This document shows positions 14,572-31,839 of a stretch of 64,000 bases of DNA, in pieces (the stretch's first letter is position 1; every line of letters begins with the position of its first letter). Source of the DNA: a virus (lineage: Duplodnaviria; Heunggongvirae; Uroviricota; Caudoviricetes); IMG/VR virus record IMGVR_UViG_2651869695_000003; one strand, 5' to 3'. The notes under the pieces are model-generated. The model had not been told where the DNA came from. It saw only the letters and a list, made by a program, of their open reading frames with translations, and did no database searches. The position numbers and the translations under genes were made by a program.

Positions 14572-14927
14572 TGGCCCGTATCGGGGGAACCTGTTATTTC
14601 AAAATTGACGGTCAGCAGCTATCGCTGACCGGCGGCATTGAGGTGCCCATGAACAGGACGGTCAATGATGACATCATCGGCCTGGACGGTTCAGTGGACC
14701 GCAAGGAAACTCACCGTGCGCCTTATGTCAAAGGGACCTTCAAGGTGCCGAAGAATTTTCCGGTGAGCAAAATCACCTCGTCTGATGAGATGACCATCAC
14801 TGCCGAGCTGGCGAACGGTCAGGTCTATGTATTGTCGTCCGCCTGGCTGCACGGAGAAGCGAACCATAATGCCGAAGAAGGCACGGTTGATCTTGAGTTC
14901 CACGGTGAAGAAGGGGATTACCAGTAA
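14571..14927 (+). CDS. Tail tube protein (Mu M-like)
   Basis: 118 aa, directly after sheath. Confidence 0.75.
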   Translation: MARIGGTCYFKIDGQQLSLTGGIEVPMNRTVNDDIIGLDGSVDRKETHRAPYVKGTFKVPKNFPVSKITSSDEMTITAELANGQVYVLSSAWLHGEANHNAEEGTVDLEFHGEEGDYQ

Positions 14928-15196
14928 TGAAAGAGCTTGAGTTAAAGAAACCGATTATCGCTCATGGTGAGACACTCTCCGTACTGGAGTTTGATGAACC
15001 CACCGGGAAGGATGTCCGCGAGCTGGGGTATCCCTACCAGATGAATCAGGATGAGTCCGTCAGACTTCTGGCGCATGTGGTGTCGAAATACATTGTGCGG
15101 CTGGCGAAAGTGCCGCAAAGCTCTGTCGACCAGATGTCTCCGGCAGACCTGAATGCAGCGGCGTGGCTTGTGGCTGGTTTTTTCCTCCAGGCCTGA
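14927..15196 (+). CDS. Tail assembly chaperone (short form)
   Basis: 89 aa immediately upstream of tape measure gene. Confidence 0.6.
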   Translation: MKELELKKPIIAHGETLSVLEFDEPTGKDVRELGYPYQMNQDESVRLLAHVVSKYIVRLAKVPQSSVDQMSPADLNAAAWLVAGFFLQA

Positions 15197-15345
15197 CGGC
15201 TGAATACCTCACTGATCGCTTCTTTGACTGCGCCAGTTACTGGCGCATTAATCCCTTCGAATTGCTGAATATGCCGATCAGTGAAATTCCCTTGCTGGTC
15301 AGTCAGGCAAACAGGATAGAGCAGGAGAAACGCACACATGGCTGA
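14927..15345 (+). CDS. Tail assembly chaperone, -1 frameshift fusion product (long form)
   Basis: Overlapping -1 frame ORF 15163..15345; slippery heptamer T TTT TTC at 15178..15184. Confidence 0.5.
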
Positions 15346-17173
15346 ATTTGAGCTTAAGGCGTTGATCACCGGTGTCGACAGGCTTTCTCCCGCGCTGTCG
15401 AAAATGCAAAAGAAAATCCGGGGATTTAAACGCCAGGCGGAAGAAGCGTCACAGGGTGGGCTGGCGCTTGGTGGCGGACTGGCAGCGGGTCTGACGCTTT
15501 CCCTGAAATCTTATGCCGATCAGGAAAACGCCGCCACCGGGCTGAAAGTCGCCATGATGGATGCGAACGGCGAGGTTGGAAAGAGCTTTCAGGACATCAA
15601 TAAACTGGCTATTGGCCTGGGTAACCAGCTACCCGGTACAACGGCTGATTTCCAGAACATGATGCAGATGCTGGTGCGTCAGGGGATCCCGGCAGAAAAC
15701 ATTCTTGGTGGTGTGGGTAAAGCGACAGCTTATCTTGCGGTACAACTGAAAAAAACACCGGAAGCGGCTGCTGAGTTTGCTGCAAAGATGCAGGATGCTA
15801 CCGGAACGGCGTCAGAAGACATGATGGGGCTGTTCGACACTATCCAGAAGGCGTTTTATCTGGGCGTTGATGATACCAACATGTTGTCCTTCTTCACTAA
15901 AACCAGTTCTGTTCTGAAAATGGTGAATAAGGACGGTCTTCAGGCTGCACAGAGTCTTGCCCCCATCAGTGTCATGATGGATCAGATGGGGATGAACGGG
16001 GAGTCGGCAGGTAATGCCCTGCGAAAAGTTATCCAGTCCGGATTAAGCGTTAAGAAAATCAGGGACGTCAATAAAATCATGGCCCGCCAGAAACTCGGGG
16101 TACAGCTCGATTTTACTGATGGCAAAGGGAGTTTTGGCGGTCTTGATAACATGTTCAGGCAACTGGCAAAGCTGCGAAAACTGACCGACGTTAAGCGAAC
16201 CGGTGTACTTAAGGCAATATTTGGTGATGATGCCGAAACCCTTCAGGTGGTCAATGCGCTGATCGATAAAGGAAAGGATGGCTACGATCAGATCCAGCAG
16301 AAGATGAATAAACAGGCCAGCCTGAATAAACGTGTTCAGGCTCAGCTTGGTACGCTGTCCAACCTGTGGGAGGCAATGACGGGGACCGCAACTAACGGCC
16401 TTGCGGCTATTGGCGGCGCATTTTCTGGTGACGCTAAAAATATCACGCAATGGCTGGGGGAGTTAGGGGAAAAATTCACGAAGTTTGCGGATGAAAATCC
16501 CCGGGTTATTCGCGGCGTCGTCGGGCTTGCTGCCGGTCTTGCGATTCTGAAACTGGGATTGATGGGCGTTGGCGGTGCCATCAGTATTGTCAGCAGGATC
16601 ATGTCGATGACGCCGATTGGCATGATTGCGACGGCGATAGCCCTGGCTGCGGGATTAATTATCACTAACTGGGATGTTGTCGGACCTTATTTTAAGAAAC
16701 TCTGGGAAACCATTGGTCCTTATTTTGAGACTGGCTGGGAACTTCTTAAGAAGGTTTTTGCCTGGTCGCCGCTGGGGATGGTGATCAATAACTGGGGACC
16801 GGTTGTTAAGTGGTTTCAGGATATGTGGGACAAGCTGAAGCCAATTATTGAGTGGTTTACCGACAGTTCCGGTGACACGGTCGATGCCATTAACTCTGCG
16901 CAGTGGGGCGCGGGTGCTTATGATGCTTATGGGACGGGAATACCGGCGCGGGGATACACACCTTATCCGGCGGTAGATCCGGCTCAGTCAAACAACGCCT
17001 CCGATGCCACAGGCCTGAATCCCTTCATGATTAACAAAGCTTCTGCGCCAAAAGTTGATGGTGAGATCAAGGTCTCTTTTGTGAATTCGCCTCCGGGTAT
17101 GCGGGTTATGGAAACGCGATCCAGCGGTTTTGATGTCAGCCATGATGTTGGCTATACGCGCTTTGGCAGGTAA
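15338..17173 (+). CDS. Tail tape measure protein
   Basis: 611 aa, Ala/Gly-rich helical, hydrophobic C-terminal segment. Confidence 0.85.
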   Translation: MAEFELKALITGVDRLSPALSKMQKKIRGFKRQAEEASQGGLALGGGLAAGLTLSLKSYADQENAATGLKVAMMDANGEVGKSFQDINKLAIGLGNQLPGTTADFQNMMQMLVRQGIPAENILGGVGKATAYLAVQLKKTPEAAAEFAAKMQDATGTASEDMMGLFDTIQKAFYLGVDDTNMLSFFTKTSSVLKMVNKDGLQAAQSLAPISVMMDQMGMNGESAGNALRKVIQSGLSVKKIRDVNKIMARQKLGVQLDFTDGKGSFGGLDNMFRQLAKLRKLTDVKRTGVLKAIFGDDAETLQVVNALIDKGKDGYDQIQQKMNKQASLNKRVQAQLGTLSNLWEAMTGTATNGLAAIGGAFSGDAKNITQWLGELGEKFTKFADENPRVIRGVVGLAAGLAILKLGLMGVGGAISIVSRIMSMTPIGMIATAIALAAGLIITNWDVVGPYFKKLWETIGPYFETGWELLKKVFAWSPLGMVINNWGPVVKWFQDMWDKLKPIIEWFTDSSGDTVDAINSAQWGAGAYDAYGTGIPARGYTPYPAVDPAQSNNASDATGLNPFMINKASAPKVDGEIKVSFVNSPPGMRVMETRSSGFDVSHDVGYTRFGR

Positions 17174-17233
17174 TGAAAAATTAATCTGTTAATGAGTCCC
17201 ACTCCGGTGGGATTTTTTATGTACGGAGTTTAT

Positions 17234-18562
17234 ATGACGTGGAAAGACAGACTTCAGGACGCGTCATTTCGCGGTGTGCCGTTTAAGGTTGAAGAAGAAA
17301 GTGCGGGAACCGGTCGTCGTGTGGAAACGCACGAATACCCGAACCGCGACAAACCCTATACCGAAGACCTGGGGAAAATCACTTTCCGCCCGTCCATCAC
17401 GGCTTATGTGGTGGGAGATGACTGCTTTGACCAGCGCGATCGCCTGATTGACGCGCTGAATAAACCCGGTCCCGGCACGCTTGTCCATCCGACTTACGGT
17501 GAGCTGAAAGTCTGTGTTGACGGAGAGGTTCGGGTCAGCACATCGAAGAGTGAAGGGCGTATTGTCCGCTTTGACCTGAAGTTTGTCGAAGCGGGAGAAC
17601 TCTCTTACCCCACATCAGGTGCGGCGACGGCGCAGACGCTGATGTCATCCTGTTCTGCACTGGATGACTGCATCAGTGACAGTTTCAGTAGTTTCAGTAT
17701 CGATGGCGTGGCAGATTTTGTGCAGAACGACGTCGTCGGTAATGCCAGCACAATGCTTGGGTATGTTTCTGATGCGATGAAAGTGGTGGATTCTGCCGTA
17801 TCGGATGCCGCCAGGCTGTTGCAGGGGGATATCTCGGTACTTCTGCCGCCGCCATCGTCAGGCAAAAATTTCGTTGAGCAGGTGCAGAAAATGTGGCGTA
17901 CCGGGAAACGCCTTTATGGTAACGCCAGCGACCTGGTCACCATGATCAAAACGCTTTCCGGTGTCAGCCTCGGCAGCGATCTGCAACCGCGCGGCGTCTG
18001 GAAAACGGACAGTAAAACCACCGCCACGGCTACGCAGCAGCGTAACGTGGTTGCCAGCACCCTTCGTACGACCGCAATCAGCGAAGCGGCGTATGCCGTC
18101 ACCCGATTGCCTGCGCCAACAACTTCCGCGGTGATGCAGAATGCCGCAGTGGGGCAGGCAACAACACCTGCGCAGAGCACTGGCTGGCCTTCCGTCACGC
18201 ATCCGGCACTGAACAATGCACCGGCGGTGAAAAACACAGTTGACCTGCCGACGTGGGAAGAACTGACTGACATTCGCGACACACTGAATACGGCAATTGA
18301 TAAGGAGTTGTCCCGTACAACCAGTGATGCGCTGTTTCTGGCGCTGCGCCGGGTGAAAGCAGATCTGAATGCGGATATCAACACGCGCCTTGAACAGTCT
18401 GCACGGATCATTCAGCGCACGCCGGATGAGGTTTTACCCGCGCTGGTGCTGGCGGCGACCTGGTTTGATAACGCGGCGCGTGACGCGGACATTATCCGGC
18501 GTAATGCCATTACGCATCCCGGCTTTGTGCCGGTGATCCCTCTGAAGGTGCCAGTGCAATGA
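17234..18562 (+). CDS. DNA circularisation protein N-like (Mu gpN family)
   Basis: Motif WKDRLQDASFRGVPF at N-terminus; GGAG 6 nt upstream of ATG 17234; ORF track start 17192 is an upstream extension. Confidence 0.7.
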   Translation: MTWKDRLQDASFRGVPFKVEEESAGTGRRVETHEYPNRDKPYTEDLGKITFRPSITAYVVGDDCFDQRDRLIDALNKPGPGTLVHPTYGELKVCVDGEVRVSTSKSEGRIVRFDLKFVEAGELSYPTSGAATAQTLMSSCSALDDCISDSFSSFSIDGVADFVQNDVVGNASTMLGYVSDAMKVVDSAVSDAARLLQGDISVLLPPPSSGKNFVEQVQKMWRTGKRLYGNASDLVTMIKTLSGVSLGSDLQPRGVWKTDSKTTATATQQRNVVASTLRTTAISEAAYAVTRLPAPTTSAVMQNAAVGQATTPAQSTGWPSVTHPALNNAPAVKNTVDLPTWEELTDIRDTLNTAIDKELSRTTSDALFLALRRVKADLNADINTRLEQSARIIQRTPDEVLPALVLAATWFDNAARDADIIRRNAITHPGFVPVIPLKVPVQ

Positions 18563-19638
18563 ACGATAACGTCACGCTACGGGTAAATGGCCGGGAGTGG
18601 AATGGCTGGACATCGGTGCGCATCGGTGCCGGTATTGAACGGCTGGCGCGGGATTTCAGTGTGGAGATCACTCGCCAGTGGCCGGGAGATGAGGGTATCA
18701 CCACGCTTCAGCCGCGCATTAAAAACGGTTCAAAAGTGGAAGTGCTGATTGGTGATGAGCTGGTGATCACCGGCTGGGTGGAGGCGACGCCCGTTCGGTA
18801 CGATGCCCGTTCGGTCAGCACCGGTATTGCCGGACGTAGTCTGACGGCTGACCTGATTGACTGTGCAGCCGAACCGACACAGTTTAACGGACGCTCGCTG
18901 GTGCAGATTGCGCAGGCGCTTGCTGCGCCTTTCGGCATTGAGGTGGTGAACAGCGGTGCGCCGTCGGGTGTTATTCCTGATGTTCAGCCTGATCACGGTG
19001 AAACGGTGATTGAGGTAATCAACAAAATACTCGGTCAGCAGCAGGCGCTGGCTTACGACGACCCGCACGGCAGGCTGGTGATTGGCGGTATTGGCTCAAC
19101 GCGGGCACATACCGCGCTGGTACTTGGGGAAAACATCCTTTCCTGTGATACGGAGAAGAGTATCCGGGACCGGTTTTCTGTTTACCAGGTGGCGGGGCAG
19201 CGTGCCGGAAACGACGATGATTTCGGTGAGGCCACCACCACCGCGCTGCGGGCCCGCACAGAGGACGCATTTATTGCCCGTTACCGTCCGATGTATATCA
19301 GGCAGACAGGGCAGGCTACGGGGGCAGGCTGTATTGCGCGTGCTGACTTTGAAGCCCGGCAACGGGCGGCGCGGACGGATGAAACCACCTATGTGGTGCA
19401 GGGCTGGCGACAGGGTAACGGTACGCTGTGGCAACCCAACCAGCGGGTGATTGTCTTTGATCCGGTCTGTGGTTTTGACAATACCGAACTGCTTGTTTCG
19501 GAAGTCACGTTTACTCAGGACCAGAACGGCACCCTGACGGAAATCCGTGTCGGCCCGCCTGATGCTTATCTGCCTGAACCTGAAGCCCCCGGCGCGCGGA
19601 AAAAGAAAAAAGCCAGAGTACAGGAGGACCCGTTCTGA
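18559..19638 (+). CDS. Baseplate/tail protein (Mu gpP-like)
   Basis: 359 aa, synteny. Confidence 0.7.
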   Translation: MNDNVTLRVNGREWNGWTSVRIGAGIERLARDFSVEITRQWPGDEGITTLQPRIKNGSKVEVLIGDELVITGWVEATPVRYDARSVSTGIAGRSLTADLIDCAAEPTQFNGRSLVQIAQALAAPFGIEVVNSGAPSGVIPDVQPDHGETVIEVINKILGQQQALAYDDPHGRLVIGGIGSTRAHTALVLGENILSCDTEKSIRDRFSVYQVAGQRAGNDDDFGEATTTALRARTEDAFIARYRPMYIRQTGQATGAGCIARADFEARQRAARTDETTYVVQGWRQGNGTLWQPNQRVIVFDPVCGFDNTELLVSEVTFTQDQNGTLTEIRVGPPDAYLPEPEAPGARKKKKARVQEDPF

Positions 19639-20186
19639 TGAGGACGATTGAAGCCATGCAGCGACAACTTCTCGGCCTGATTGGGCGGGCAGTGGTGAAA
19701 AGCATCAGTGCCGCCACGAAATGTCAGACCGTGGATGTGTCCCTGATTGCCGGTGAACCCAAAGCCGGGGTTGAACATCTTGAACCCTACGGTTTTACCG
19801 CAAGGGCAAACAGCGGTGCGGAAGCGGTGGTGTTGTTTCCGGATGGCGACCGTTCTCATGCGGTGGTTGTTACGGTGTCGGACCGGCGCTACCGCCTGAA
19901 AGGGCTGCAGACGGGTGAGGTGGCTGTCTATGACGATCAGGGGCAGTCTGTGACGCTGACCCGGGAGGGGATCGTGGTGGACGGTGCAGGTAAAACGATC
20001 ACGTTTCGCAATGCGCCCAGAGCACGTTTTGAAATGGACCTGGAAGTGACCGGACAGGTGAAAGACCTGTGCGACTCCGGCGGCACCACCATGTCAGCGA
20101 TGCGGCTTGCCTATAACGGCCATTGTCACAGAGAGAACGGTCAGGGCAGTAACACCGACAAACCGGATAAAGCGATGGAGGCATGA
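19638..20186 (+). CDS. Baseplate assembly protein V (spike)
   Basis: 182 aa, synteny. Confidence 0.7.
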   Translation: MRTIEAMQRQLLGLIGRAVVKSISAATKCQTVDVSLIAGEPKAGVEHLEPYGFTARANSGAEAVVLFPDGDRSHAVVVTVSDRRYRLKGLQTGEVAVYDDQGQSVTLTREGIVVDGAGKTITFRNAPRARFEMDLEVTGQVKDLCDSGGTTMSAMRLAYNGHCHRENGQGSNTDKPDKAMEA

Positions 20187-20611
20187 TGGAACTGTGGCTG
20201 ACGGTGAACGGTAAACGCACCTGCGCCAGCGCACCGCTGGATCCGCTGACCCGCGCCGTGGTGATTTCCCTGTTTACCTGGCGGCGGGCGGAGCCTGATG
20301 ACAATGCCGACGTCCCGATGGGATGGTGGGGGGATACCTGGCCTGCGGTACAGAATGACCGTTACGGCTCCCGGCTGTGGCTGCTTCAGCGCGGCAAACT
20401 GACCAATCAGCTGGTGCAGACGGTAAGGGGGTATATCCGCGAATGCCTGCAATGGATGATTGATGACGGTGTGGTGTCCCGTATTGATCTGGATATCCGC
20501 CGCACCGGGATTAATGAACTGGGTAACAGTATCACTCTCTGGCGTCGTGACGGACCGGTAATGATTTCTTTTGATGATCTGTGGAGTGCGATAACGCATG
20601 GCGGACAGTGA
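20183..20611 (+). CDS. Baseplate protein gp25/GPW-like
   Basis: 142 aa, synteny. Confidence 0.7.
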   Translation: MMELWLTVNGKRTCASAPLDPLTRAVVISLFTWRRAEPDDNADVPMGWWGDTWPAVQNDRYGSRLWLLQRGKLTNQLVQTVRGYIRECLQWMIDDGVVSRIDLDIRRTGINELGNSITLWRRDGPVMISFDDLWSAITHGGQ

Positions 20612-21656
20612 ATTTCAGCGCCCGACGCTGGCAGAAAATATCAGTATGCTCCGTAACGATTTATTCGCCAGGCTGGACGTCAGCGACACGCTCCGGCGCA
20701 TGGATGAAGACGTGCGGGCAAAGGTGTATGCGGCGGCGCTGCATACGGTTTACGGTTACATCGATTATCTGGCAATGAACATGCTGCCTGACCTGTGCGA
20801 TGAGTCCTGGCTGGCGAGACATGCTGCGATGAAACGGTGTCCGCGCAAGGGGGCCACGTCTGCCAGCGGGTATATGCGCTGGGAAGGTGTCAGCGATGGC
20901 CTGAAGGTGACCGCCGGGAGTGTTATTCAGCGCGATGATCTGGTTCAGTACACGGCAACTTCTGATGCAACCAGCTCAGGTGGAGTCCTGCGCGTGCCGA
21001 TCGCCTGCTCAACTGCAGGCGCGGTCGGTAACGCTGACGACGGTACGGCATTAATCCTGGTCACGCCGGTGAATGGTCTGCCGTCTTCCGGTGTGGCAGA
21101 TACCCTGACTGGCGGATTCGATACTGAAGATCTGGAAACGTGGCGCGCCCGCGTCATTGAGCGGTATTACTGGACGCCGCAGGGCGGGGCTGACGGGGAC
21201 TATGTCGTCTGGGCTAAAGAAGTGCCCGGCATTACCCGCGCATGGACATACCGTCACTGGATGGGAACGGGGACTGTCGGTGTGATGATTGCCGGCAGTG
21301 ACCTGATTAATCCCATTCCGGAAGAATCAACGGAAACGGCGGCAAGACAACATATCGGGCCACTGGCCCCGGTGGCAGGCTCTGATTTGTATGTGTTCAG
21401 GCCGGCGGCGCATACGGTGGATTTTCATATCCGCGTGACGCCGGACACACCAGAAATACGGGCTGCCATTACCGCGGAGTTGCGTTCGTTCCTGCTGCGT
21501 GATGGTTATCCGCAGGGAGAACTGAAGGTATCGCGTATCAGTGAGGCGATTTCCGGTGCGAACGGGGAATACAGCCATCAATTGCTTGCACCGGCGGACA
21601 ATATCTCCATTGCAAAAAATGAACTGGCGGTTCTGGGGACGATTTCATGGACGTGA
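20598..21656 (+). CDS. Baseplate J-like protein
   Basis: 352 aa, synteny. Confidence 0.8.
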
Positions 21657-22231
21657 CAAACGATGATTACATCCGTCTGTTGTCGGCACTGCTGCCGCCC
21701 GGTCCGGCGTGGTCAGCCAGCGATCCGGCGATTGCCGGTACGGCACCGTCATTAACCCGTGTTCATCAGCGTGCGGATGCCCTGATGCGGGAGCTGGATC
21801 CGCGCACCACCACCGAACTGATAAACCGCTGGGAGCGTCTGTGCGGCCTGCCGGATGAATGTATTCCTACAGGGACACAGACCCTTCGCCAGCGCCAGCA
21901 ACGGCTGGATGCGAAGGTTAACCTGTCGGGTGGCATCAACGAGGATTTTTATCTTGCACAGCTTGCTGCCCTGGGCAGACCAGATGCTACCATCACGCGA
22001 TACGACAAAAGCACGTTCACCTGCTCATCGGCCTGTACTGACGCGGTGAATGCGCCGGAATGGCGGTATTACTGGCAGATCAACATGCCAGCCGCCACCA
22101 ACACCACCTGGATGACATGTGGCGATCCCTGTGATTCCGCACTGCGTATCTGGGGCGACACCGTTGTCGAATGTGTGCTTAACAAACTCTGCCCGTCGCA
22201 TACCTACGTAATTTTTAAATATCCGGAGTAA
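21647..22231 (+). CDS. Tail protein, YmfQ/Mu gp48-like (DUF2313)
   Basis: 194 aa; immediately upstream of tail fibre. Confidence 0.65.
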
Positions 22232-22234
22232 TCC

Positions 22235-23218
22235 ATGCATCGTATAGACACGAAAACCGCGCAGAAGGATAAGTTCGGCGCGGGTAAGAACGGTTTTACC
22301 CGTGGTAACCCCCAGACCGGCACACCTGCCACCGATCTTGATGATGACTACTTTGATATGTTGCAGGAAGAACTCTGCAGCGTGGTGGAGGCATCCGGTG
22401 CCAGCCTGGAGAAGGGGCGGCATGACCAGCTGCTTACCGCGCTTCGTGCGCTGCTGTTAAGCCGCAAGAATCCGTTTAGCGATATCAAATCGGATGGCAC
22501 GGTGAAAACGGCTCTCGAAAACCTTGGTTTGGGAGAAGCCAGATTCTCTGGTCGTTTGTTAAACACGAATATTTTTAAAAGCTCTGGAAAATATATCCCA
22601 ACACTAGGGACAAAAAAGATAAGGGTCATTGCCTCTGGTGGCGGTGGCGGCGGCGGTGGGGTTCCTGAAACAACAGAAAATCAGCAGGCAACAGCCGGAG
22701 CTGGATTGAGCGGTGCATTTATTGAAGCATTTTTCGAGGTTGATAATGATTTCGAAGTCAACGTTATTATCGGTGCTGCAGGTAAAGGGGGGGGAGCCGG
22801 AAGAAATTCAGGTAGTGAAGGTGGCACAACTTATTTCGGTTCCCTGATAACTGCACCGGGTGGTACAGGCGGTGGCGCGGGGGGAGCATCTGCAAACACA
22901 TCATATATTCAGGGTATTTCATGGGGTGCCAGTCCGACATCGTCCGGTACTGTACTAAGAGCATTTCGCTGTAGTGCAAAAACACCAGGAGCAATGGTTA
23001 TCTCTGTTAAAGCTGTTGCAGGTGGTACCGGGGGGGATACACCACTAGGTTCAGGCGGTATAGGTGGTGCAAGTTCTTCATCATTCAGCGGACGTGGTGG
23101 TGGTAAAGCTGAGGGCTTTGGTGCTGGCGGAGGCGGAGCCTGCGCACCTGCCGGAAGTGAGGCTCAATCGGGAGGTGACGGTGCCCCGGGAATAGTTATT
23201 GTTGAGGAGTATGCCTGA
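22235..23218 (+). CDS. Tail fibre protein, variant A (constant N-terminus 102 aa + Gly-rich variable C-terminus)
   Basis: First 102 aa identical to the fibre at 23869..24531; C-terminus rich in GGxGG repeats. Confidence 0.8.
22512..22537. other. Candidate Din-family invertase crossover site (left)
   Basis: CTCTCGAAAACC-TT-GGTTTGGGAGAA fits the hix/gix/cix-type pattern (TTnTCnnAAACC-NN-GGTTTnnGAnAA, from memory); lies at the constant/variable junction. Confidence 0.55.
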
Positions 23219-23481
23219 TGAGTAATTTTGCTCTGATTGAACATGGCGTGGTGAAAAATATTATTATCTGGGATGGAGAGGGTGATTTATTCTCTAACTG
23301 CGAAATTATAAATATTGATCATATAGATGCAGGCGTCGGTTGGTTCTATTCTGACGGAGAGTTTATAGCACCACCGGAACCGGAAATGACTGAATATGAT
23401 GTTGGTAATATCGACGCGGTGATGGAATCAGATACCAGCACCGCGCCGGACGTCATCTGGCCTGAACTGCCGGAGGCGTAG
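23218..23481 (+). CDS. Tail fibre assembly protein for variant A
   Basis: 87 aa; start overlaps fibre A stop (TGATG); C-terminus ...[12 protein letters not shown] resembles Tfa C-termini. Confidence 0.55.
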   Translation: MSNFALIEHGVVKNIIIWDGEGDLFSNCEIINIDHIDAGVGWFYSDGEFIAPPEPEMTEYDVGNIDAVMESDTSTAPDVIWPELPEA

Positions 23482-23872
23482 GCCATTCAATATCTGGCGC
23501 ACCGGAAGTATCGACCAGTTCCAGTGCGTCCAGGTAATCCAGCCACAAATTATATTGCGCCAGTTCCTCACCTTTCAGACGACCAATAGCGGCTTTACCA
23601 GGCCATTGCTTACTGTTCATGTATTCGTTGGCCTGTTCAATAAGTATACTTTTCATTCCCTCCGCTTCAGCTATTTCCTGTTCCTGTGTCTTCGCTGGAT
23701 ATTCAGTAAGTACAGGGTAGTTATCCGGATTATTGATAATAATTTTCCCCGTACTCTGACCATTCATAAGTTCATAATAAAGAGCATCTTCAATATCGAA
23801 AGCATCATCGGGAATATCGCTGTTATTTTCAGAGAAAAATCCCTGAACAGATGGGGACCATTTCATTTTCAT
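23453..23872 (-). CDS. Tail fibre assembly protein for variant B
   Basis: 139 aa; coupled to fibre B; C-terminus ...[15 protein letters not shown]; 3' end overlaps convergent tfa A by 29 nt. Confidence 0.7.
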
Positions 23873-24531
23873 AATTTCCCAATTCCTAAAATGTGGACAT
23901 CATCAGCCTTACGGGCATTCCAGGTGACAATTACATCGGTAGAGTGACGATTAACTGAGATTGCATATGCTTCGTTAGTCGAGCCAGAAACTTTTGTAGC
24001 AAACACAGCAAACAGGACACCAAATGACTGGGGCCATTTATAGCCTGACAGCTGATAATTACCATTATTCAGTGTTACAGCTTTGGCTGCTGCACTTGAT
24101 GGAATCGTCAGCCACTGAAGTATCAACCCTCCTGGCAAAAGTTGTTTTCCGTAATAATCCCTCACCCCACTAAATGAAGCCATGTCCGGTATCTGATTTT
24201 CCCCTGTTCCCACATTTCGTTTTGCCGCTTCTCCCAAACCAAGGTTTTCGAGAGCCGTTTTCACCGTGCCATCCGATTTGATATCGCTAAACGGATTCTT
24301 GCGGCTTAACAGCAGCGCACGAAGCGCGGTAAGCAGCTGGTCATGCCGCCCCTTCTCCAGGCTGGCACCGGATGCCTCCACCACGCTGCAGAGTTCTTCC
24401 TGCAACATATCAAAGTAGTCATCATCAAGATCGGTGGCAGGTGTGCCGGTCTGGGGGTTACCACGGGTAAAACCGTTCTTACCCGCGCCGAACTTATCCT
24501 TCTGCGCGGTTTTCGTGTCTATACGATGCAT
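23869..24531 (-). CDS. Tail fibre protein, variant B (same constant N-terminus, different C-terminal receptor-binding region)
   Basis: N-terminal 102 aa identical to variant A, then unrelated C-terminus. Confidence 0.8.
24229..24254. other. Candidate Din-family invertase crossover site (right, inverted)
   Basis: TTCTCCCAAACC-AA-GGTTTTCGAGAG, reverse complement of left site. Confidence 0.55.
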
Positions 24532-24534
24532 GGA

Positions 24535-25119
24535 TTACTCCGGATATTTAAAAATTACGTAGGTATGCGACGGGCAGAGTTTGTTAAGCACACATTCGAC
24601 AACGGTGTCGCCCCAGATACGCAGTGCGGAATCACAGGGATCGCCACATGTCATCCAGGTGGTGTTGGTGGCGGCTGGCATGTTGATCTGCCAGTAATAC
24701 CGCCATTCCGGCGCATTCACCGCGTCAGTACAGGCCGATGAGCAGGTGAACGTGCTTTTGTCGTATCGCGTGATGGTAGCATCTGGTCTGCCCAGGGCAG
24801 CAAGCTGTGCAAGATAAAAATCCTCGTTGATGCCACCCGACAGGTTAACCTTCGCATCCAGCCGTTGCTGGCGCTGGCGAAGGGTCTGTGTCCCTGTAGG
24901 AATACATTCATCCGGCAGGCCGCACAGACGCTCCCAGCGGTTTATCAGTTCGGTGGTGGTGCGCGGATCCAGCTCCCGCATCAGGGCATCCGCACGCTGA
25001 TGAACACGGGTTAATGACGGTGCCGTACCGGCAATCGCCGGATCGCTGGCTGACCACGCCGGACCGGGCGGCAGCAGTGCCGACAACAGACGGATGTAAT
25101 CATCGTTTGTCACGTCCAT
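24535..25119 (-). CDS. Tail protein YmfQ/gp48-like (copy 2)
   Basis: Reverse-complement identical copy of 21647..22231. Confidence 0.65.
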
Positions 25120-26168
25120 GAAATCGTCCCCAGAACCGCCAGTTCATTTTTTGCAATGGAGATATTGTCCGCCGGTGCAAGCAATTGATGGCTGTATTCC
25201 CCGTTCGCACCGGAAATCGCCTCACTGATACGCGATACCTTCAGTTCTCCCTGCGGATAACCATCACGCAGCAGGAACGAACGCAACTCCGCGGTAATGG
25301 CAGCCCGTATTTCTGGTGTGTCCGGCGTCACGCGGATATGAAAATCCACCGTATGCGCCGCCGGCCTGAACACATACAAATCAGAGCCTGCCACCGGGGC
25401 CAGTGGCCCGATATGTTGTCTTGCCGCCGTTTCCGTTGATTCTTCCGGAATGGGATTAATCAGGTCACTGCCGGCAATCATCACACCGACAGTCCCCGTT
25501 CCCATCCAGTGACGGTATGTCCATGCGCGGGTAATGCCGGGCACTTCTTTAGCCCAGACGACATAGTCCCCGTCAGCCCCGCCCTGCGGCGTCCAGTAAT
25601 ACCGCTCAATGACGCGGGCGCGCCACGTTTCCAGATCTTCAGTATCGAATCCGCCAGTCAGGGTATCTGCCACACCGGAAGACGGCAGACCATTCACCGG
25701 CGTGACCAGGATTAATGCCGTACCGTCGTCAGCGTTACCGACCGCGCCTGCAGTTGAGCAGGCGATCGGCACGCGCAGGACTCCACCTGAGCTGGTTGCA
25801 TCAGAAGTTGCCGTGTACTGAACCAGATCATCGCGCTGAATAACACTCCCGGCGGTCACCTTCAGGCCATCGCTGACACCTTCCCAGCGCATATACCCGC
25901 TGGCAGACGTGGCCCCCTTGCGCGGACACCGTTTCATCGCAGCATGTCTCGCCAGCCAGGACTCATCGCACAGGTCAGGCAGCATGTTCATTGCCAGATA
26001 ATCGATGTAACCGTAAACCGTATGCAGCGCCGCCGCATACACCTTTGCCCGCACGTCTTCATCCATGCGCCGGAGCGTGTCGCTGACGTCCAGCCTGGCG
26101 AATAAATCGTTACGGAGCATACTGATATTTTCTGCCAGCGTCGGGCGCTGAAATTCACTGTCCGCCAT
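25110..26168 (-). CDS. Baseplate J-like protein (copy 2)
   Basis: Identical inverted copy of 20598..21656. Confidence 0.8.
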
Positions 26169-26583
26169 GCGTTATCGCACTCCACAGATCATCAAAAGAA
26201 ATCATTACCGGTCCGTCACGACGCCAGAGAGTGATACTGTTACCCAGTTCATTAATCCCGGTGCGGCGGATATCCAGATCAATACGGGACACCACACCGT
26301 CATCAATCATCCATTGCAGGCATTCGCGGATATACCCCCTTACCGTCTGCACCAGCTGATTGGTCAGTTTGCCGCGCTGAAGCAGCCACAGCCGGGAGCC
26401 GTAACGGTCATTCTGTACCGCAGGCCAGGTATCCCCCCACCATCCCATCGGGACGTCGGCATTGTCATCAGGCTCCGCCCGCCGCCAGGTAAACAGGGAA
26501 ATCACCACGGCGCGGGTCAGCGGATCCAGCGGTGCGCTGGCGCAGGTGCGTTTACCGTTCACCGTCAGCCACAGTTCCATCAT
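26155..26583 (-). CDS. Baseplate gp25/GPW-like (copy 2)
   Basis: Identical inverted copy of 20183..20611. Confidence 0.7.
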   Translation of the reverse strand: MMELWLTVNGKRTCASAPLDPLTRAVVISLFTWRRAEPDDNADVPMGWWGDTWPAVQNDRYGSRLWLLQRGKLTNQLVQTVRGYIRECLQWMIDDGVVSRIDLDIRRTGINELGNSITLWRRDGPVMISFDDLWSAITHGGQ

Positions 26584-27128
26584 GCCTCCATCGCTTTATC
26601 CGGTTTGTCGGTGTTACTGCCCTGACCGTTCTCTCTGTGACAATGGCCGTTATAGGCAAGCCGCATCGCTGACATGGTGGTGCCGCCGGAGTCGCACAGG
26701 TCTTTCACCTGTCCGGTCACTTCCAGGTCCATTTCAAAACGTGCTCTGGGCGCATTGCGAAACGTGATCGTTTTACCTGCACCGTCCACCACGATCCCCT
26801 CCCGGGTCAGCGTCACAGACTGCCCCTGATCGTCATAGACAGCCACCTCACCCGTCTGCAGCCCTTTCAGGCGGTAGCGCCGGTCCGACACCGTAACAAC
26901 CACCGCATGAGAACGGTCGCCATCCGGAAACAACACCACCGCTTCCGCACCGCTGTTTGCCCTTGCGGTAAAACCGTAGGGTTCAAGATGTTCAACCCCG
27001 GCTTTGGGTTCACCGGCAATCAGGGACACATCCACGGTCTGACATTTCGTGGCGGCACTGATGCTTTTCACCACTGCCCGCCCAATCAGGCCGAGAAGTT
27101 GTCGCTGCATGGCTTCAATCGTCCTCAT
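26580..27128 (-). CDS. Baseplate assembly protein V (copy 2)
   Basis: Identical inverted copy of 19638..20186. Confidence 0.7.
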   Translation of the reverse strand: MRTIEAMQRQLLGLIGRAVVKSISAATKCQTVDVSLIAGEPKAGVEHLEPYGFTARANSGAEAVVLFPDGDRSHAVVVTVSDRRYRLKGLQTGEVAVYDDQGQSVTLTREGIVVDGAGKTITFRNAPRARFEMDLEVTGQVKDLCDSGGTTMSAMRLAYNGHCHRENGQGSNTDKPDKAMEA

Positions 27129-28207
27129 CAGAACGGGTCCTCCTGTACTCTGGCTTTTTTCTTTTTCCGCGCGCCGGGGGCTTCAGGTTCAGGCAGATAA
27201 GCATCAGGCGGGCCGACACGGATTTCCGTCAGGGTGCCGTTCTGGTCCTGAGTAAACGTGACTTCCGAAACAAGCAGTTCGGTATTGTCAAAACCACAGA
27301 CCGGATCAAAGACAATCACCCGCTGGTTGGGTTGCCACAGCGTACCGTTACCCTGTCGCCAGCCCTGCACCACATAGGTGGTTTCATCCGTCCGCGCCGC
27401 CCGTTGCCGGGCTTCAAAGTCAGCACGCGCAATACAGCCTGCCCCCGTAGCCTGCCCTGTCTGCCTGATATACATCGGACGGTAACGGGCAATAAATGCG
27501 TCCTCTGTGCGGGCCCGCAGCGCGGTGGTGGTGGCCTCACCGAAATCATCGTCGTTTCCGGCACGCTGCCCCGCCACCTGGTAAACAGAAAACCGGTCCC
27601 GGATACTCTTCTCCGTATCACAGGAAAGGATGTTTTCCCCAAGTACCAGCGCGGTATGTGCCCGCGTTGAGCCAATACCGCCAATCACCAGCCTGCCGTG
27701 CGGGTCGTCGTAAGCCAGCGCCTGCTGCTGACCGAGTATTTTGTTGATTACCTCAATCACCGTTTCACCGTGATCAGGCTGAACATCAGGAATAACACCC
27801 GACGGCGCACCGCTGTTCACCACCTCAATGCCGAAAGGCGCAGCAAGCGCCTGCGCAATCTGCACCAGCGAGCGTCCGTTAAACTGTGTCGGTTCGGCTG
27901 CACAGTCAATCAGGTCAGCCGTCAGACTACGTCCGGCAATACCGGTGCTGACCGAACGGGCATCGTACCGAACGGGCGTCGCCTCCACCCAGCCGGTGAT
28001 CACCAGCTCATCACCAATCAGCACTTCCACTTTTGAACCGTTTTTAATGCGCGGCTGAAGCGTGGTGATACCCTCATCTCCCGGCCACTGGCGAGTGATC
28101 TCCACACTGAAATCCCGCGCCAGCCGTTCAATACCGGCACCGATGCGCACCGATGTCCAGCCATTCCACTCCCGGCCATTTACCCGTAGCGTGACGTTAT
28201 CGTTCAT
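27128..28207 (-). CDS. Baseplate/tail protein gpP-like (copy 2)
   Basis: Identical inverted copy of 18559..19638. Confidence 0.7.
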   Translation of the reverse strand: MNDNVTLRVNGREWNGWTSVRIGAGIERLARDFSVEITRQWPGDEGITTLQPRIKNGSKVEVLIGDELVITGWVEATPVRYDARSVSTGIAGRSLTADLIDCAAEPTQFNGRSLVQIAQALAAPFGIEVVNSGAPSGVIPDVQPDHGETVIEVINKILGQQQALAYDDPHGRLVIGGIGSTRAHTALVLGENILSCDTEKSIRDRFSVYQVAGQRAGNDDDFGEATTTALRARTEDAFIARYRPMYIRQTGQATGAGCIARADFEARQRAARTDETTYVVQGWRQGNGTLWQPNQRVIVFDPVCGFDNTELLVSEVTFTQDQNGTLTEIRVGPPDAYLPEPEAPGARKKKKARVQEDPF

Positions 28208-29532
28208 TGCACTGGCACCTTCAGAGGGATCACCGGCACAAAGCCGGGATGCGTAATGGCATTACGCCGGATAATGTCCGCGTCACGCGCCGCGTTATCA
28301 AACCAGGTCGCCGCCAGCACCAGCGCGGGTAAAACCTCATCCGGCGTGCGCTGAATGATCCGTGCAGACTGTTCAAGGCGCGTGTTGATATCCGCATTCA
28401 GATCTGCTTTCACCCGGCGCAGCGCCAGAAACAGCGCATCACTGGTTGTACGGGACAACTCCTTATCAATTGCCGTATTCAGTGTGTCGCGAATGTCAGT
28501 CAGTTCTTCCCACGTCGGCAGGTCAACTGTGTTTTTCACCGCCGGTGCATTGTTCAGTGCCGGATGCGTGACGGAAGGCCAGCCAGTGCTCTGCGCAGGT
28601 GTTGTTGCCTGCCCCACTGCGGCATTCTGCATCACCGCGGAAGTTGTTGGCGCAGGCAATCGGGTGACGGCATACGCCGCTTCGCTGATTGCGGTCGTAC
28701 GAAGGGTGCTGGCAACCACGTTACGCTGCTGCGTAGCCGTGGCGGTGGTTTTACTGTCCGTTTTCCAGACGCCGCGCGGTTGCAGATCGCTGCCGAGGCT
28801 GACACCGGAAAGCGTTTTGATCATGGTGACCAGGTCGCTGGCGTTACCATAAAGGCGTTTCCCGGTACGCCACATTTTCTGCACCTGCTCAACGAAATTT
28901 TTGCCTGACGATGGCGGCGGCAGAAGTACCGAGATATCCCCCTGCAACAGCCTGGCGGCATCCGATACGGCAGAATCCACCACTTTCATCGCATCAGAAA
29001 CATACCCAAGCATTGTGCTGGCATTACCGACGACGTCGTTCTGCACAAAATCTGCCACGCCATCGATACTGAAACTACTGAAACTGTCACTGATGCAGTC
29101 ATCCAGTGCAGAACAGGATGACATCAGCGTCTGCGCCGTCGCCGCACCTGATGTGGGGTAAGAGAGTTCTCCCGCTTCGACAAACTTCAGGTCAAAGCGG
29201 ACAATACGCCCTTCACTCTTCGATGTGCTGACCCGAACCTCTCCGTCAACACAGACTTTCAGCTCACCGTAAGTCGGATGGACAAGCGTGCCGGGACCGG
29301 GTTTATTCAGCGCGTCAATCAGGCGATCGCGCTGGTCAAAGCAGTCATCTCCCACCACATAAGCCGTGATGGACGGGCGGAAAGTGATTTTCCCCAGGTC
29401 TTCGGTATAGGGTTTGTCGCGGTTCGGGTATTCGTGCGTTTCCACACGACGACCGGTTCCCGCACTTTCTTCTTCAACCTTAAACGGCACACCGCGAAAT
29501 GACGCGTCCTGAAGTCTGTCTTTCCACGTCAT
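28204..29532 (-). CDS. DNA circularisation protein N-like (copy 2)
   Basis: Identical inverted copy of 17234..18562. Confidence 0.7.
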   Translation of the reverse strand: MTWKDRLQDASFRGVPFKVEEESAGTGRRVETHEYPNRDKPYTEDLGKITFRPSITAYVVGDDCFDQRDRLIDALNKPGPGTLVHPTYGELKVCVDGEVRVSTSKSEGRIVRFDLKFVEAGELSYPTSGAATAQTLMSSCSALDDCISDSFSSFSIDGVADFVQNDVVGNASTMLGYVSDAMKVVDSAVSDAARLLQGDISVLLPPPSSGKNFVEQVQKMWRTGKRLYGNASDLVTMIKTLSGVSLGSDLQPRGVWKTDSKTTATATQQRNVVASTLRTTAISEAAYAVTRLPAPTTSAVMQNAAVGQATTPAQSTGWPSVTHPALNNAPAVKNTVDLPTWEELTDIRDTLNTAIDKELSRTTSDALFLALRRVKADLNADINTRLEQSARIIQRTPDEVLPALVLAATWFDNAARDADIIRRNAITHPGFVPVIPLKVPVQ

Positions 29533-29592
29533 ATAAACTCCGTACATAAAAAATCCCACCGGAGTGGGACTCATTAACAGATTAATTTTTCA

Positions 29593-31428
29593 TTACCTGC
29601 CAAAGCGCGTATAGCCAACATCATGGCTGACATCAAAACCGCTGGATCGCGTTTCCATAACCCGCATACCCGGAGGCGAATTCACAAAAGAGACCTTGAT
29701 CTCACCATCAACTTTTGGCGCAGAAGCTTTGTTAATCATGAAGGGATTCAGGCCTGTGGCATCGGAGGCGTTGTTTGACTGAGCCGGATCTACCGCCGGA
29801 TAAGGTGTGTATCCCCGCGCCGGTATTCCCGTCCCATAAGCATCATAAGCACCCGCGCCCCACTGCGCAGAGTTAATGGCATCGACCGTGTCACCGGAAC
29901 TGTCGGTAAACCACTCAATAATTGGCTTCAGCTTGTCCCACATATCCTGAAACCACTTAACAACCGGTCCCCAGTTATTGATCACCATCCCCAGCGGCGA
30001 CCAGGCAAAAACCTTCTTAAGAAGTTCCCAGCCAGTCTCAAAATAAGGACCAATGGTTTCCCAGAGTTTCTTAAAATAAGGTCCGACAACATCCCAGTTA
30101 GTGATAATTAATCCCGCAGCCAGGGCTATCGCCGTCGCAATCATGCCAATCGGCGTCATCGACATGATCCTGCTGACAATACTGATGGCACCGCCAACGC
30201 CCATCAATCCCAGTTTCAGAATCGCAAGACCGGCAGCAAGCCCGACGACGCCGCGAATAACCCGGGGATTTTCATCCGCAAACTTCGTGAATTTTTCCCC
30301 TAACTCCCCCAGCCATTGCGTGATATTTTTAGCGTCACCAGAAAATGCGCCGCCAATAGCCGCAAGGCCGTTAGTTGCGGTCCCCGTCATTGCCTCCCAC
30401 AGGTTGGACAGCGTACCAAGCTGAGCCTGAACACGTTTATTCAGGCTGGCCTGTTTATTCATCTTCTGCTGGATCTGATCGTAGCCATCCTTTCCTTTAT
30501 CGATCAGCGCATTGACCACCTGAAGGGTTTCGGCATCATCACCAAATATTGCCTTAAGTACACCGGTTCGCTTAACGTCGGTCAGTTTTCGCAGCTTTGC
30601 CAGTTGCCTGAACATGTTATCAAGACCGCCAAAACTCCCTTTGCCATCAGTAAAATCGAGCTGTACCCCGAGTTTCTGGCGGGCCATGATTTTATTGACG
30701 TCCCTGATTTTCTTAACGCTTAATCCGGACTGGATAACTTTTCGCAGGGCATTACCTGCCGACTCCCCGTTCATCCCCATCTGATCCATCATGACACTGA
30801 TGGGGGCAAGACTCTGTGCAGCCTGAAGACCGTCCTTATTCACCATTTTCAGAACAGAACTGGTTTTAGTGAAGAAGGACAACATGTTGGTATCATCAAC
30901 GCCCAGATAAAACGCCTTCTGGATAGTGTCGAACAGCCCCATCATGTCTTCTGACGCCGTTCCGGTAGCATCCTGCATCTTTGCAGCAAACTCAGCAGCC
31001 GCTTCCGGTGTTTTTTTCAGTTGTACCGCAAGATAAGCTGTCGCTTTACCCACACCACCAAGAATGTTTTCTGCCGGGATCCCCTGACGCACCAGCATCT
31101 GCATCATGTTCTGGAAATCAGCCGTTGTACCGGGTAGCTGGTTACCCAGGCCAATAGCCAGTTTATTGATGTCCTGAAAGCTCTTTCCAACCTCGCCGTT
31201 CGCATCCATCATGGCGACTTTCAGCCCGGTGGCGGCGTTTTCCTGATCGGCATAAGATTTCAGGGAAAGCGTCAGACCCGCTGCCAGTCCGCCACCAAGC
31301 GCCAGCCCACCCTGTGACGCTTCTTCCGCCTGGCGTTTAAATCCCCGGATTTTCTTTTGCATTTTCGACAGCGCGGGAGAAAGCCTGTCGACACCGGTGA
31401 TCAACGCCTTAAGCTCAAATTCAGCCAT
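29593..31428 (-). CDS. Tail tape measure protein (copy 2)
   Basis: Identical inverted copy of 15338..17173. Confidence 0.85.
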   Translation of the reverse strand: MAEFELKALITGVDRLSPALSKMQKKIRGFKRQAEEASQGGLALGGGLAAGLTLSLKSYADQENAATGLKVAMMDANGEVGKSFQDINKLAIGLGNQLPGTTADFQNMMQMLVRQGIPAENILGGVGKATAYLAVQLKKTPEAAAEFAAKMQDATGTASEDMMGLFDTIQKAFYLGVDDTNMLSFFTKTSSVLKMVNKDGLQAAQSLAPISVMMDQMGMNGESAGNALRKVIQSGLSVKKIRDVNKIMARQKLGVQLDFTDGKGSFGGLDNMFRQLAKLRKLTDVKRTGVLKAIFGDDAETLQVVNALIDKGKDGYDQIQQKMNKQASLNKRVQAQLGTLSNLWEAMTGTATNGLAAIGGAFSGDAKNITQWLGELGEKFTKFADENPRVIRGVVGLAAGLAILKLGLMGVGGAISIVSRIMSMTPIGMIATAIALAAGLIITNWDVVGPYFKKLWETIGPYFETGWELLKKVFAWSPLGMVINNWGPVVKWFQDMWDKLKPIIEWFTDSSGDTVDAINSAQWGAGAYDAYGTGIPARGYTPYPAVDPAQSNNASDATGLNPFMINKASAPKVDGEIKVSFVNSPPGMRVMETRSSGFDVSHDVGYTRFGR

Positions 31429-31839
31429 GTGTGCGTTTCTCCTGCTCTATCCTGTTTGCCTGACTGACCAGCAAGGGAATTTCACTGATCGGCATATTCA
31501 GCAATTCGAAGGGATTAATGCGCCAGTAACTGGCGCAGTCAAAGAAGCGATCAGTGAGGTATTCAGCCGTCAGGCCTGGAGGAAAAAACCAGCCACAAGC
31601 CACGCCGCTGCATTCAGGTCTGCCGGAGACATCTGGTCGACAGAGCTTTGCGGCACTTTCGCCAGCCGCACAATGTATTTCGACACCACATGCGCCAGAA
31701 GTCTGACGGACTCATCCTGATTCATCTGGTAGGGATACCCCAGCTCGCGGACATCCTTCCCGGTGGGTTCATCAAACTCCAGTACGGAGAGTGTCTCACC
31801 ATGAGCGATAATCGGTTTCTTTAACTCAAGCTCTTTCAT
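31421..31839 (-). CDS. Tail assembly chaperone incl. -1 frameshift extension (copy 2)
   Basis: Identical inverted copy of 14927..15345; slippery site at 31582..31588. Confidence 0.5.

Follow-up and report, generated by a model that had tools for sequence, protein, structure and literature searches.

The window, as we call the entire 64-kb stretch of DNA analyzed here, is the E. coli draft contig JHST01000046.1 (assembly GCA_001266115.1), and its coordinates are those of the contig. A tail-fiber locus lies downstream of a set of baseplate genes, and the features relevant to this locus are as follows.

1..22539, plus strand: left arm, the genuine left flank, with prophage head, tail, and Mu-like baseplate genes; its inner end is the constant part of the fiber gene (perfect reverse complement of 24227-46765)
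21647..22231, plus strand: YmfQ, a Mu gp48-like baseplate wedge protein encoded directly upstream of the fiber gene (Pfam Phage_Mu_Gp48, 94 bits)
22235..22539, plus strand: constant 5' part (Sc) of the tail-fiber gene, 102 codons, ending in ...ENLGLGEA and located outside the unique invertible center
22235..23218, plus strand: fiber form A, Sc joined to a glycine-rich tip, 327 aa (variable part 22540-23218)
22512..22537, plus strand: pix crossover site of the Sc-side type, CTCTCGAAAACC TT GGTTTGGGAGAA, with its central dinucleotide at 22524-22525
22540..24226, no strand assigned: unique center of the invertible P segment, 1,687 nt, with two alternative fiber 3' cassettes and their chaperone genes
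23218..23481, plus strand: shortened Tfa-like ORF paired with tip A, 87 aa (alignment to Caudo_TAP relatives)
23453..23872, minus strand: TfaB, the tail-fiber assembly chaperone paired with tip B, 139 aa (Pfam Caudo_TAP, 83 bits)
23869..24226, minus strand: variable 3' cassette B, with a predicted gp53-like beta-sandwich tip (relatives and AF2 model)
23869-24531, minus strand: fiber form B ORF as assembled, 220 aa
24229..24254, minus strand: second crossover site, which in this assembly mirrors the Sc-side site (junction alignment and pattern search)
24227..46765, minus strand: mirrored second copy of 1-22539, in which Sc (24227-24531), ymfQ, and the baseplate and tail module all recur
46766..64000, minus strand: continuation of the flank beyond the stretch that the left copy, truncated by the contig start, still covers; prophage genes (Q/replication/repressor), two integrases (one at 56202-57377, the second broken), an IS21 element (58607-60406), and E. 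coli chromosome

Scanned with PADLOC and Pfam, the window from 51 to 64 kb yielded the IS21 element and the integrases, and nothing there bears on the fiber locus.

The baseplate module upstream of the fiber gene is indeed Mu-like, as a preliminary description of this DNA had proposed. In addition to Phage_Mu_Gp48, the Pfam domains Baseplate_J, GP46, and Gp45 were found there, and YmfQ is 96% identical to the YmfQ protein of the K-12 prophage e14. The same description held that two fiber ORFs (22235-23218 on the plus strand and 23869-24531 on the minus strand) have their first 102 residues in common and then diverge, with a glycine-rich C-terminus in the former, and this is what we observe. 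The shared part is 98% identical to residues 1-101 of K-12 StfP. When the sequences of both fiber forms were searched against the PDB, the only match was a weak one between Sc and the N-terminus of phage Mu fiber protein S (5yvq/8ju3).

Because the PDB search gave only this weak match, the fiber folds were instead compared through AF2 models. The model of form A has a pLDDT of 80.6 overall and mostly >90 in the tip, which also matches the Pfam domain Gly_rich_2 (PF21722, 30.6 bits). Its best Foldseek matches are the cyanophage Pam3 fiber 7ypx (1e-9) and the Bxb1 tail tip 9d93, followed by the glycine-rich domains of ALK/LTK. For form B, the model has only moderate confidence (pLDDT 66.6 overall, 71-90 in the C-terminal domain) and suggests a gp53-like beta-sandwich; its top Foldseek matches, to the R2 pyocin fiber (6ct8/6cl6), are weak (TM 0.26) and are taken as a hint only. 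Relatives of cassette B contain the Gp53-like_C domain (PF21882). These domain matches and models mark both tips as bona fide fiber ends.

A chaperone gene of its own had also been proposed for each fiber gene, and this holds in part. The two tfa ORFs (23218-23481 on the plus strand and 23453-23872 on the minus strand) are convergent and overlap by 29 nt, and TfaB is 49% identical to K-12 TfaP. The 87-aa ORF that follows tip A scores below the Pfam threshold for Caudo_TAP. Its N-terminal ~58 aa and C-terminal ~20 aa align to Caudo_TAP chaperones of 131-133 aa that come after Gly_rich_2 tips in two other contigs (L012 and L014), the middle ~45 aa are absent, and its last 23 aa are 87% identical to K-12 TfaE. 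Judged from this alignment, it is an internally deleted Tfa.

The pix site at 22512-22537 lies within the fiber gene, where it codes for the residues ENLGLGE, and is identical to the site in K-12 e14, for which the repeat TTGGTTTGGGAGAAGG has been quoted (PMC12529663). It also conforms to the 26-bp invertase consensus tabulated in PMC4134206. A pattern search of the 64-kb window found two pix-type sites against 0.02 expected. Even with up to three mismatches allowed, these were the only two pix-like sites in the 64 kb, which rules out a multi-site system such as Min of p15B or a shufflon. In real genomes, junction alignment places the pin-side site, TTTTCATAAACG TT GGTTTGGGAGAA, at the position that matches 24229-24254. 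The Sc-side and pin-side sites share a perfect stretch of only 16 nt, and the true inverted repeat at natural loci spans ~16-21 nt within the 26-bp sites. As in the Gin, Cin, Pin, and Hin systems, the locus carries two inverted sites of ~26 bp that match the family consensus around a central dinucleotide.

The identity between the two fiber genes had been described as limited to 306 nt. This is not the case, since those 306 nt are merely the inner tip of a perfect inverted repeat of at least 22,539 nt. On comparison of the window with itself, positions 24227-46765 proved to be the exact reverse complement of positions 1-22539 (0 mismatches in 22,539 nt), and the left copy is truncated by the contig start. 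The arms terminate precisely at the crossover sites. Between them lies the unique center of 1,687 nt (22540-24226), which is not itself palindromic (25% match). As assembled, the whole tail and baseplate module is thus present in two mirrored copies around this center.

This mirrored layout was found in 0 of 5,426 complete E. coli genomes and in 0 of 50,697 phage records. Among 120 IMG/VR contigs with an Sc-type site, one (L126; IMGVR_UViG_2534681626_000009, 5,298 nt) is from end to end a perfect palindrome around another P segment, and 13 others stop no more than 130 nt past the site. A literature search for the phrase “palindromic contigs” turned up no paper that uses it.

No invertase was found in the 64-kb window by tblastn with PinE (best E = 4.7). 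The mirrored flank occupies the position of the invertase gene, which we attribute to misassembly. Five sister contigs (L005, L007, L008, L001, and L002) have flanks and a segment identical or near-identical to those here, and in each of them an invertase gene neighbors the segment: a 184-aa Resolvase/HTH_7 protein starts ~80 nt past it. This protein is 95% identical to K-12 PinE; at the DNA level, L005 pin and K-12 pinE are 91.9% identical. At the position of the mirrored arm, the sister contigs encode the Resolvase/HTH_7 protein, a GIY-YIG protein, a Dcm-like methylase, and EcoRII. In characterized invertase systems, a Fis-dependent recombination enhancer acts in cis and is located inside the 5' part of the invertase gene.

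Two of these contigs, L005 and L007, belong to other E. coli assemblies with the same encoded fiber proteins, and they differ from one another only by the exact inversion of the same 1,687 nt. No mismatch occurs in the segment or in either flank, and the flanks are identical over 6,305 nt on the left and at least 4,608 nt on the right; the left arm of the window matches L005 without a difference over the 6,400 nt compared. Among the 5,426 complete E. coli genomes, the Sc-A junction is present in 3 and the Sc-B junction in 12, and the complete genomes NZ_LR882050.1 and NZ_CP060083.1 carry one orientation each beside pinE. Both orientations thus occur in nature between unchanged flanks. All natural copies of identical sequence have a single Sc, located outside the segment, and their second cassette is truncated, to 136 or 243 aa. 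The two 3' parts lie inside the segment on opposite strands, each with its chaperone gene (that of A being the internally deleted one of 87 aa). Cassette B corresponds to the 136-aa fragment ORF in L005, and where genomes express A it is promoterless and adjoins pin.

We consider it highly probable that the window represents an e14/SfV-like E. coli prophage with a P-type invertible segment, in a contig that has undergone a mirror-image misassembly. This reading brings together the palindrome, the crossover sites, the natural inversion between identical flanks, the pin gene in sister contigs, and the modeled folds of the tips, all of which were observed here. The preliminary description had already proposed a Gin/Cin/Pin-type switch, and that assignment stands, in the form of an e14 P-type switch, on the strength of the sites, YmfQ, Sc, the sister invertase, and the inversion between L005 and L007. 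The layout with two complete fiber genes, which had been cited in its favor, is not that of such switches. Real Gin/Cin/Pin switches have one constant 5' part, and their second cassette is promoterless and adjoins the invertase gene. The apparent pair of complete fiber genes is most likely an assembly artifact, and misassembly of DNA from a culture with mixed orientations best explains why the N-terminus and the baseplate module occur twice and the recombinase is absent.

In the real genome, one Sc of 102 codons would end in a 26-bp pix site, and a second, inverted pix site would lie ~1.7 kb downstream with the pin gene directly after it. Pin, a serine DNA invertase, would swap strands at the central TT of both sites and thereby flip the segment. 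Sc would then be fused either to cassette A, with the glycine-rich tip and the short Tfa-like ORF, or to cassette B, with the gp53-like beta-sandwich and a Caudo_TAP chaperone; the unused cassette would remain silent, in antisense orientation beside pin. The two forms may correspond to two host ranges. Both orientations were most likely present in the culture that was sequenced, so that in the assembly graph each end of the segment would have been tied to one and the same left flank. We infer that the assembler proceeded from the flank through the segment and into the same flank in reverse complement. The resulting contig would contain a perfect palindrome, each arm at least 22.5 kb long, and a spurious second fiber gene of full length, but neither pin nor the right flank.

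A single contig contains both the Sc-A and the Sc-B junction. Since the Sc-side site has only 16 nt in perfect common with the pin-side site, each of these junctions would need support from reads at any usual k-mer size. If the palindrome is an artifact, it indirectly indicates that the sequenced culture contained both orientations, and the switch was then probably active there.

Sequence alone would be identical if the palindrome were real, given that a very recent genuine inverted duplication yields the same letters as a misjoin. It is nevertheless very improbable that the strain, or a sizeable subpopulation of it, carried an inverted duplication of the prophage flank centered on the P segment. 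A recombinase product would be expected to have its junctions exactly at crossover sites, as both do here, and the contig start, at which the left arm ends, could in principle be a duplication border. Such a molecule could have originated if Pin exchanged strands between an Sc-side site and a pin-side site located on different copies of the chromosome or of the prophage. However, exchange between sister chromosomes would yield an inverted dimer chromosome that could not be resolved, and a bounded duplication would require a second, unrelated event. Furthermore, short reads would be unable to place a perfect 22.5-kb repeat twice, such that the layout would be a path through the graph either way. 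The absence of this layout from the complete genomes also argues against a real molecule, and its recurrence in the unrelated small contig L126 fits a recurrent artifact. Somewhat less probable again is the full scenario, in which Pin made an inverted duplication of at least 22.5 kb, pin was lost, and the product was abundant enough to assemble. If true, it would mean that tail-fiber invertases are able to cause large palindromic rearrangements in the host chromosome.

We assign an even slighter chance to a mirror image without any relation to inversion that arose from a “hairpin” chimera, in a template or in a read, for example through a missed long-read adapter or multiple-displacement amplification. 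Hairpin artifacts at contig ends are a recognized problem and were screened for in PMC4134206, but such turns occur at arbitrary points with little or no spacer, whereas the turn seen here encloses a unique segment of 1,687 nt that is bounded by pix sites to the base on both sides. Least probable of all is the literal reading, with two complete fiber genes that have their own N-termini and 306-nt inverted repeats akin to the long repeats of the P1 C segment. Although both ORFs are intact as assembled, the great length of the repeat, the duplication of the whole tail module, and the single Sc and truncated second cassette of every natural copy of identical sequence all count against it.

If the contig is indeed a misassembled e14/SfV-like prophage, the biological addition is small. 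Pin-type tail-fiber switches in such prophages are already known as textbook cases, and both cassettes are already present in hundreds of sequenced E. coli genomes. The lesson instead concerns genome scanning and annotation, in that an invertible segment can lead an assembler to fold the contig back on itself. Folded-back contigs then display mirror-image duplications, spurious full-length genes, and a seeming absence of the recombinase, and about one-third of a 64-kb “phage” window can be artifact.

The closest known system is the P segment of the cryptic prophage e14 in K-12 (ymfQ-stfP-tfaP / tfaE-stfE-pinE), reportedly described by Plasterk and van de Putte in 1985. In addition to the protein identities given above for YmfQ, Sc, and the sister-contig invertase, it has the same crossover sites on both sides, the same gene order, and convergent tfa genes with the same 29-nt overlap. 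The segments are also similar in size, with a center of 1,687 nt here and a segment of 1,797 bp in K-12. Inside the segment, however, conservation is limited to ~200 nt at the convergent tfa ends: where K-12 has StfE/TfaE, the segment here has the Gly_rich_2 domain of tip A with an 87-aa shortened Tfa, and tip B and TfaB are only distantly related to the StfP tip and TfaP. Moreover, e14 is a remnant whereas the prophage here is full length, and the window as assembled lacks pin. The K-12 e14 repeats and their inversion are described in PMC12529663 and PMC4272514.

An SfV-like prophage with a fixed Gly_rich_2 fiber (L012; GCA_022974865.1) shares the baseplate module, and its glycine-rich tip is 38% identical to tip A. 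It differs in having no second cassette or invertase; its tip is followed by a full-length Caudo_TAP protein of 133 aa and then by gtr O-antigen modification genes.

The Mu G segment (Gin; S/U and S'/U') and the P1 C segment (Cin) likewise have a constant fiber 5' part outside the segment, alternative 3' parts with chaperones in opposite orientation inside it, and an adjoining serine invertase gene. The Mu-like baseplate module and the weak match of Sc to the Mu protein S N-terminus add to the likeness with Mu. The fiber cassettes are different and the fiber is shorter here, and the rest of the prophage is lambdoid/SfV-like. The inverted repeats of the P1 C segment are ~0.6 kb long, compared to the 16-21 nt shared here. 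A P1-like long-repeat switch was rejected, in that the repeat extends over at least 22,539 nt in the window and over 16-21 nt in natural loci rather than a few hundred base pairs.

A precedent for the assembly itself is E. coli EC958, whose prophages Phi1, Phi2, and Phi4 have invertible tail-fiber segments. Tail-fiber inversion in that strain is documented to have yielded spurious contigs and “artefactual duplications in phage regions” (PMC4134206). Its sites belong to the same 26-bp family, and those of Phi2 (TCCTCAATTACCTT GGTTTAGGAGAA and GAGAGATAAACGTT GGTTTGGGGGAA) resemble the sites here. Mixed orientations in one culture disturbed that assembly, as they probably did here. In EC958 the alternative orientation ended up in separate small contigs, whereas here it would have been joined as a mirror-image duplication within a single contig.

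Four open reading frames (ORFs) make up the feature under study (22235-24531), as the preliminary description had stated:

22235-23218, + strand: fibre ORF of form A (constant 5' part Sc, 22235-22539, plus tip A), 327 aa, glycine-rich in its C-terminal two thirds
23218-23481, + strand: short ORF after tip A, 87 aa
23453-23872, - strand: TfaB ORF, 139 aa
23869-24531, - strand: fibre ORF of form B (Sc plus tip B), 220 aa

The two short ORFs converge with a 29-nt overlap, and the two fibre ORFs have their first 102 residues in common. These residues are indeed identical, as had been described, but the shared stretch of 306 nt is just the tip of a repeat of at least 22,539 nt. A repeat search revealed that window positions 1-22539 (left arm) are the exact reverse complement of 24227-46765 (right arm), without a single mismatch over 22,539 nt, and that the repeat extends past the window start. 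The 1,687-nt centre between the arms (22540-24226) is not palindromic (25% match). The genes that precede the fibre gene, among them ymfQ/gp48, baseplate J, gp46, and gp45, are therefore all present in two mirror-image copies.

An exact-protein look-up identified the window as positions 1-64000 of the NCBI draft contig JHST01000046.1 (64,025 nt; E. coli GCA_001266115.1). The coordinates are equal, so that the left arm is truncated where the contig begins. The end of the left copy mirrors to position 46766, within a lambdoid Q / DUF968 region near which many E. coli genomes have mosaic break points (matches begin at ~46060-46195). The sequence there may be a repeat common to other prophages that terminated the assembler's path.

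Beyond the right arm lies the remaining prophage with Q, replication, and repressor genes, followed by an integrase (56202-57377). One early-region ORF (55103-55993, 296 aa) matches Csx27 weakly in PADLOC (E = 1.4e-5) and has no Pfam match. An IS21-family element (58607-60406; IstA with an rve domain, 354 aa; IstB, 244 aa) separates the prophage integrase from a second integrase, which is in fragments (60459-60782 and 61066-61407). The PADLOC "DrmD" match of IstB looks like AAA ATPase domain similarity and is no evidence for a defence system. After this element, the sequence enters E. coli chromosome that several finished genomes match at 100% identity. Nowhere in the 64-kb window is a homologue of a Pin-type serine DNA invertase encoded.

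In draft contigs of further E. coli assemblies, fibre proteins exactly identical to those of the window are encoded in a normal layout. Two sister contigs, L005 and L007, have identical left flanks over 6,305 nt and identical right flanks over at least 4,608 nt. Their sole difference is the orientation of a 1,687-nt stretch, which has the same sequence as window 22540-24226 and is exactly reverse-complemented between them. In both, the cassette that is not joined to Sc is a truncated ORF (136 or 243 aa) beside the invertase gene, and ~80 nt past the segment is a gene for a 184-aa Resolvase/HTH_7 protein, followed in order by genes for a GIY-YIG protein, a Dcm-like methylase, and EcoRII. Both orientations also occur in finished genomes in which pinE adjoins the segment, with Sc joined to cassette A in NZ_LR882050.1 and to cassette B in NZ_CP060083.1. 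The invertible tail-fibre segment proposed in the preliminary description is thus borne out by inversion between identical flanks. Among 5,426 complete E. coli genomes, 3 have the Sc-A junction and 12 have the Sc-B junction. None covers 80% or more of window 21600-25200, and the mirrored layout is therefore absent from these genomes by this measure.

The position just past pin differs by host (L005, 8687-12549; comparison contigs L001, 7321-8094, and L010, 7347-8180). Its cargo comprises a LEM-3-like GIY-YIG nuclease, the Dcm-like methylase, and EcoRII in the sister contigs, only a GIY-YIG protein in NZ_LR882050.1, and McrA in K-12 e14. This position looks like a variable slot at the prophage end for restriction or defence genes, and the mirrored join accounts for its absence from the window.

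Junction alignments identify the 26-bp crossover (pix) sites as the true inverted repeats. The Sc-side site, CTCTCGAAAACC TT GGTTTGGGAGAA, is located at window 22512-22537, and the pin-side site, read towards the segment, is TTTTCATAAACG TT GGTTTGGGAGAA. The two share perfect identity over 16 nt only, or 21 of 22 nt with one mismatch. Both are the sites of K-12 e14, whose repeat has been given as TTGGTTTGGGAGAAGG (PMC12529663), and both match the 26-bp consensus tabulated for the Mu, P1, e14, p15B, and S. boydii invertases (PMC4134206). In this known e14 P-type switch, Pin exchanges strands at the central TT of both sites, so that flipping of the segment fuses the single constant fibre 5' part to cassette A or cassette B and leaves the unused cassette antisense and adjoining pin. 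Both window sites are of the Sc type (two pattern matches, where chance would give 0.02). The right-hand outer half-site belongs to one orientation of the normal genome and the left-hand one to the other; thus, the contig combines the Sc junction of each orientation within a single molecule.

An assembly artefact is the best explanation of the mirror image. For a culture with both orientations, the assembly graph would connect both segment ends to the left flank and so permit a path from flank through segment to the same flank reversed. This reading is favored because the arms stop, to the base, at crossover sites, because the structure is absent from finished genomes, and because short reads would be unable to place two copies of a perfect 22.5-kb repeat independently. 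The two Sc junctions share just 16 nt with the pin-side site, and therefore both should be present in the reads at usual k-mer lengths. Furthermore, inversion of the e14 prophage fibre segment within a culture is documented (PMC4272514), and such inversion is known to yield spurious contigs and "artefactual duplications in phage regions" (PMC4134206).

Searching IMG/VR with the Sc-type site retrieved 120 contigs, and the outcome supports the same explanation. A single site is present in 119 of these, 13 of which (L021, L024, L028, L034, L048, L064, L070, L084, L097, L099, L125, L127, and L132) end no more than 130 nt past it, several at the very last base. Such ends are expected if mixed orientations interrupt the assembly graph at this site. 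Moreover, contig L126 (IMGVR_UViG_2534681626_000009, 1-5298) is a perfect palindrome over its whole length, running from flank through P segment to flank reversed, with 1,745-nt arms (0 mismatches) and a 1,806-nt spacer. The palindrome is built around a different, e14-like P segment whose B-side cassette starts like K-12 StfE (GSALPVGVPV). L126 is an independent instance of the artefact described here.

A real rearrangement, in which Pin mediated an exchange between two chromosome copies, would be indistinguishable from a misjoin by sequence alone. We consider it very unlikely, since it would give an unresolvable inverted dimer or require a second event, and finished genomes hold no similar structure. 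A read-level hairpin chimera unconnected with inversion is even less probable, as it leaves the 1,687-nt spacer and its exact pix-site bounds unexplained. Least credible is the layout as originally described, with two complete fibre genes flanked by 306-nt repeats, which is contradicted by the repeat length and by every natural copy. What survives of that interpretation is the e14-type invertible segment; the pair of complete fibre genes that begin identically, the doubled baseplate module, and the lack of a recombinase most likely reflect mirror-image misassembly.

Structure prediction was run for both C-termini. Tip A is a Gly_rich_2 domain (PF21722), for which an AF2 model was built on 52 relatives (pLDDT 80.6 overall, mostly >90 within the tip). 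Among PDB structures, it comes closest to the cyanophage Pam3 fibre (7ypx, E = 1e-9) and mycobacteriophage Bxb1 tail-tip proteins (9d93), with ALK/LTK glycine-rich domains next. Tip B, which belongs to the gp53-like type of C-terminal domain (PF21882) seen in SfV-type fibres, was modelled with lower, moderate confidence (pLDDT 66.6 overall, 71-90 in the C-terminal beta-sandwich) and has only weak structural matches, to the R2 pyocin fibre. Two tips that differ in this way likely confer two receptor specificities.

Each fibre variant had been assigned its own chaperone gene. This holds for TfaB, a clear Caudo_TAP chaperone (83 bits), but the 87-aa ORF is an internally deleted form of the 131-133-aa Caudo_TAP proteins found full-length 3' of related glycine-rich tips in contigs L012 (SfV-like) and L014. 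It lacks ~45 central residues that make up the conserved helical region of Caudo_TAP, and it matches K-12 TfaE at 87% identity over its last 23 residues. It may be either a minimal chaperone that still works or a deletion that is tolerated. The cassette with this ORF is widespread in E. coli at 97% identity or more.

The main value of these findings is caution over palindromic contigs at invertible segments. The locus itself is a genuine invertible tail-fibre segment of the e14 type, a system already known. YmfQ is 96%, the constant fibre part 98%, and the sister-contig invertase 95% identical to those of K-12 e14, and the flanks are 95-96% identical as far as the sites. Within the segment, conservation is limited to ~200 nt at the ends where the tfa genes converge. 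The cassettes have therefore been exchanged between anchors that are conserved, in the manner usual for mosaic fibre genes.
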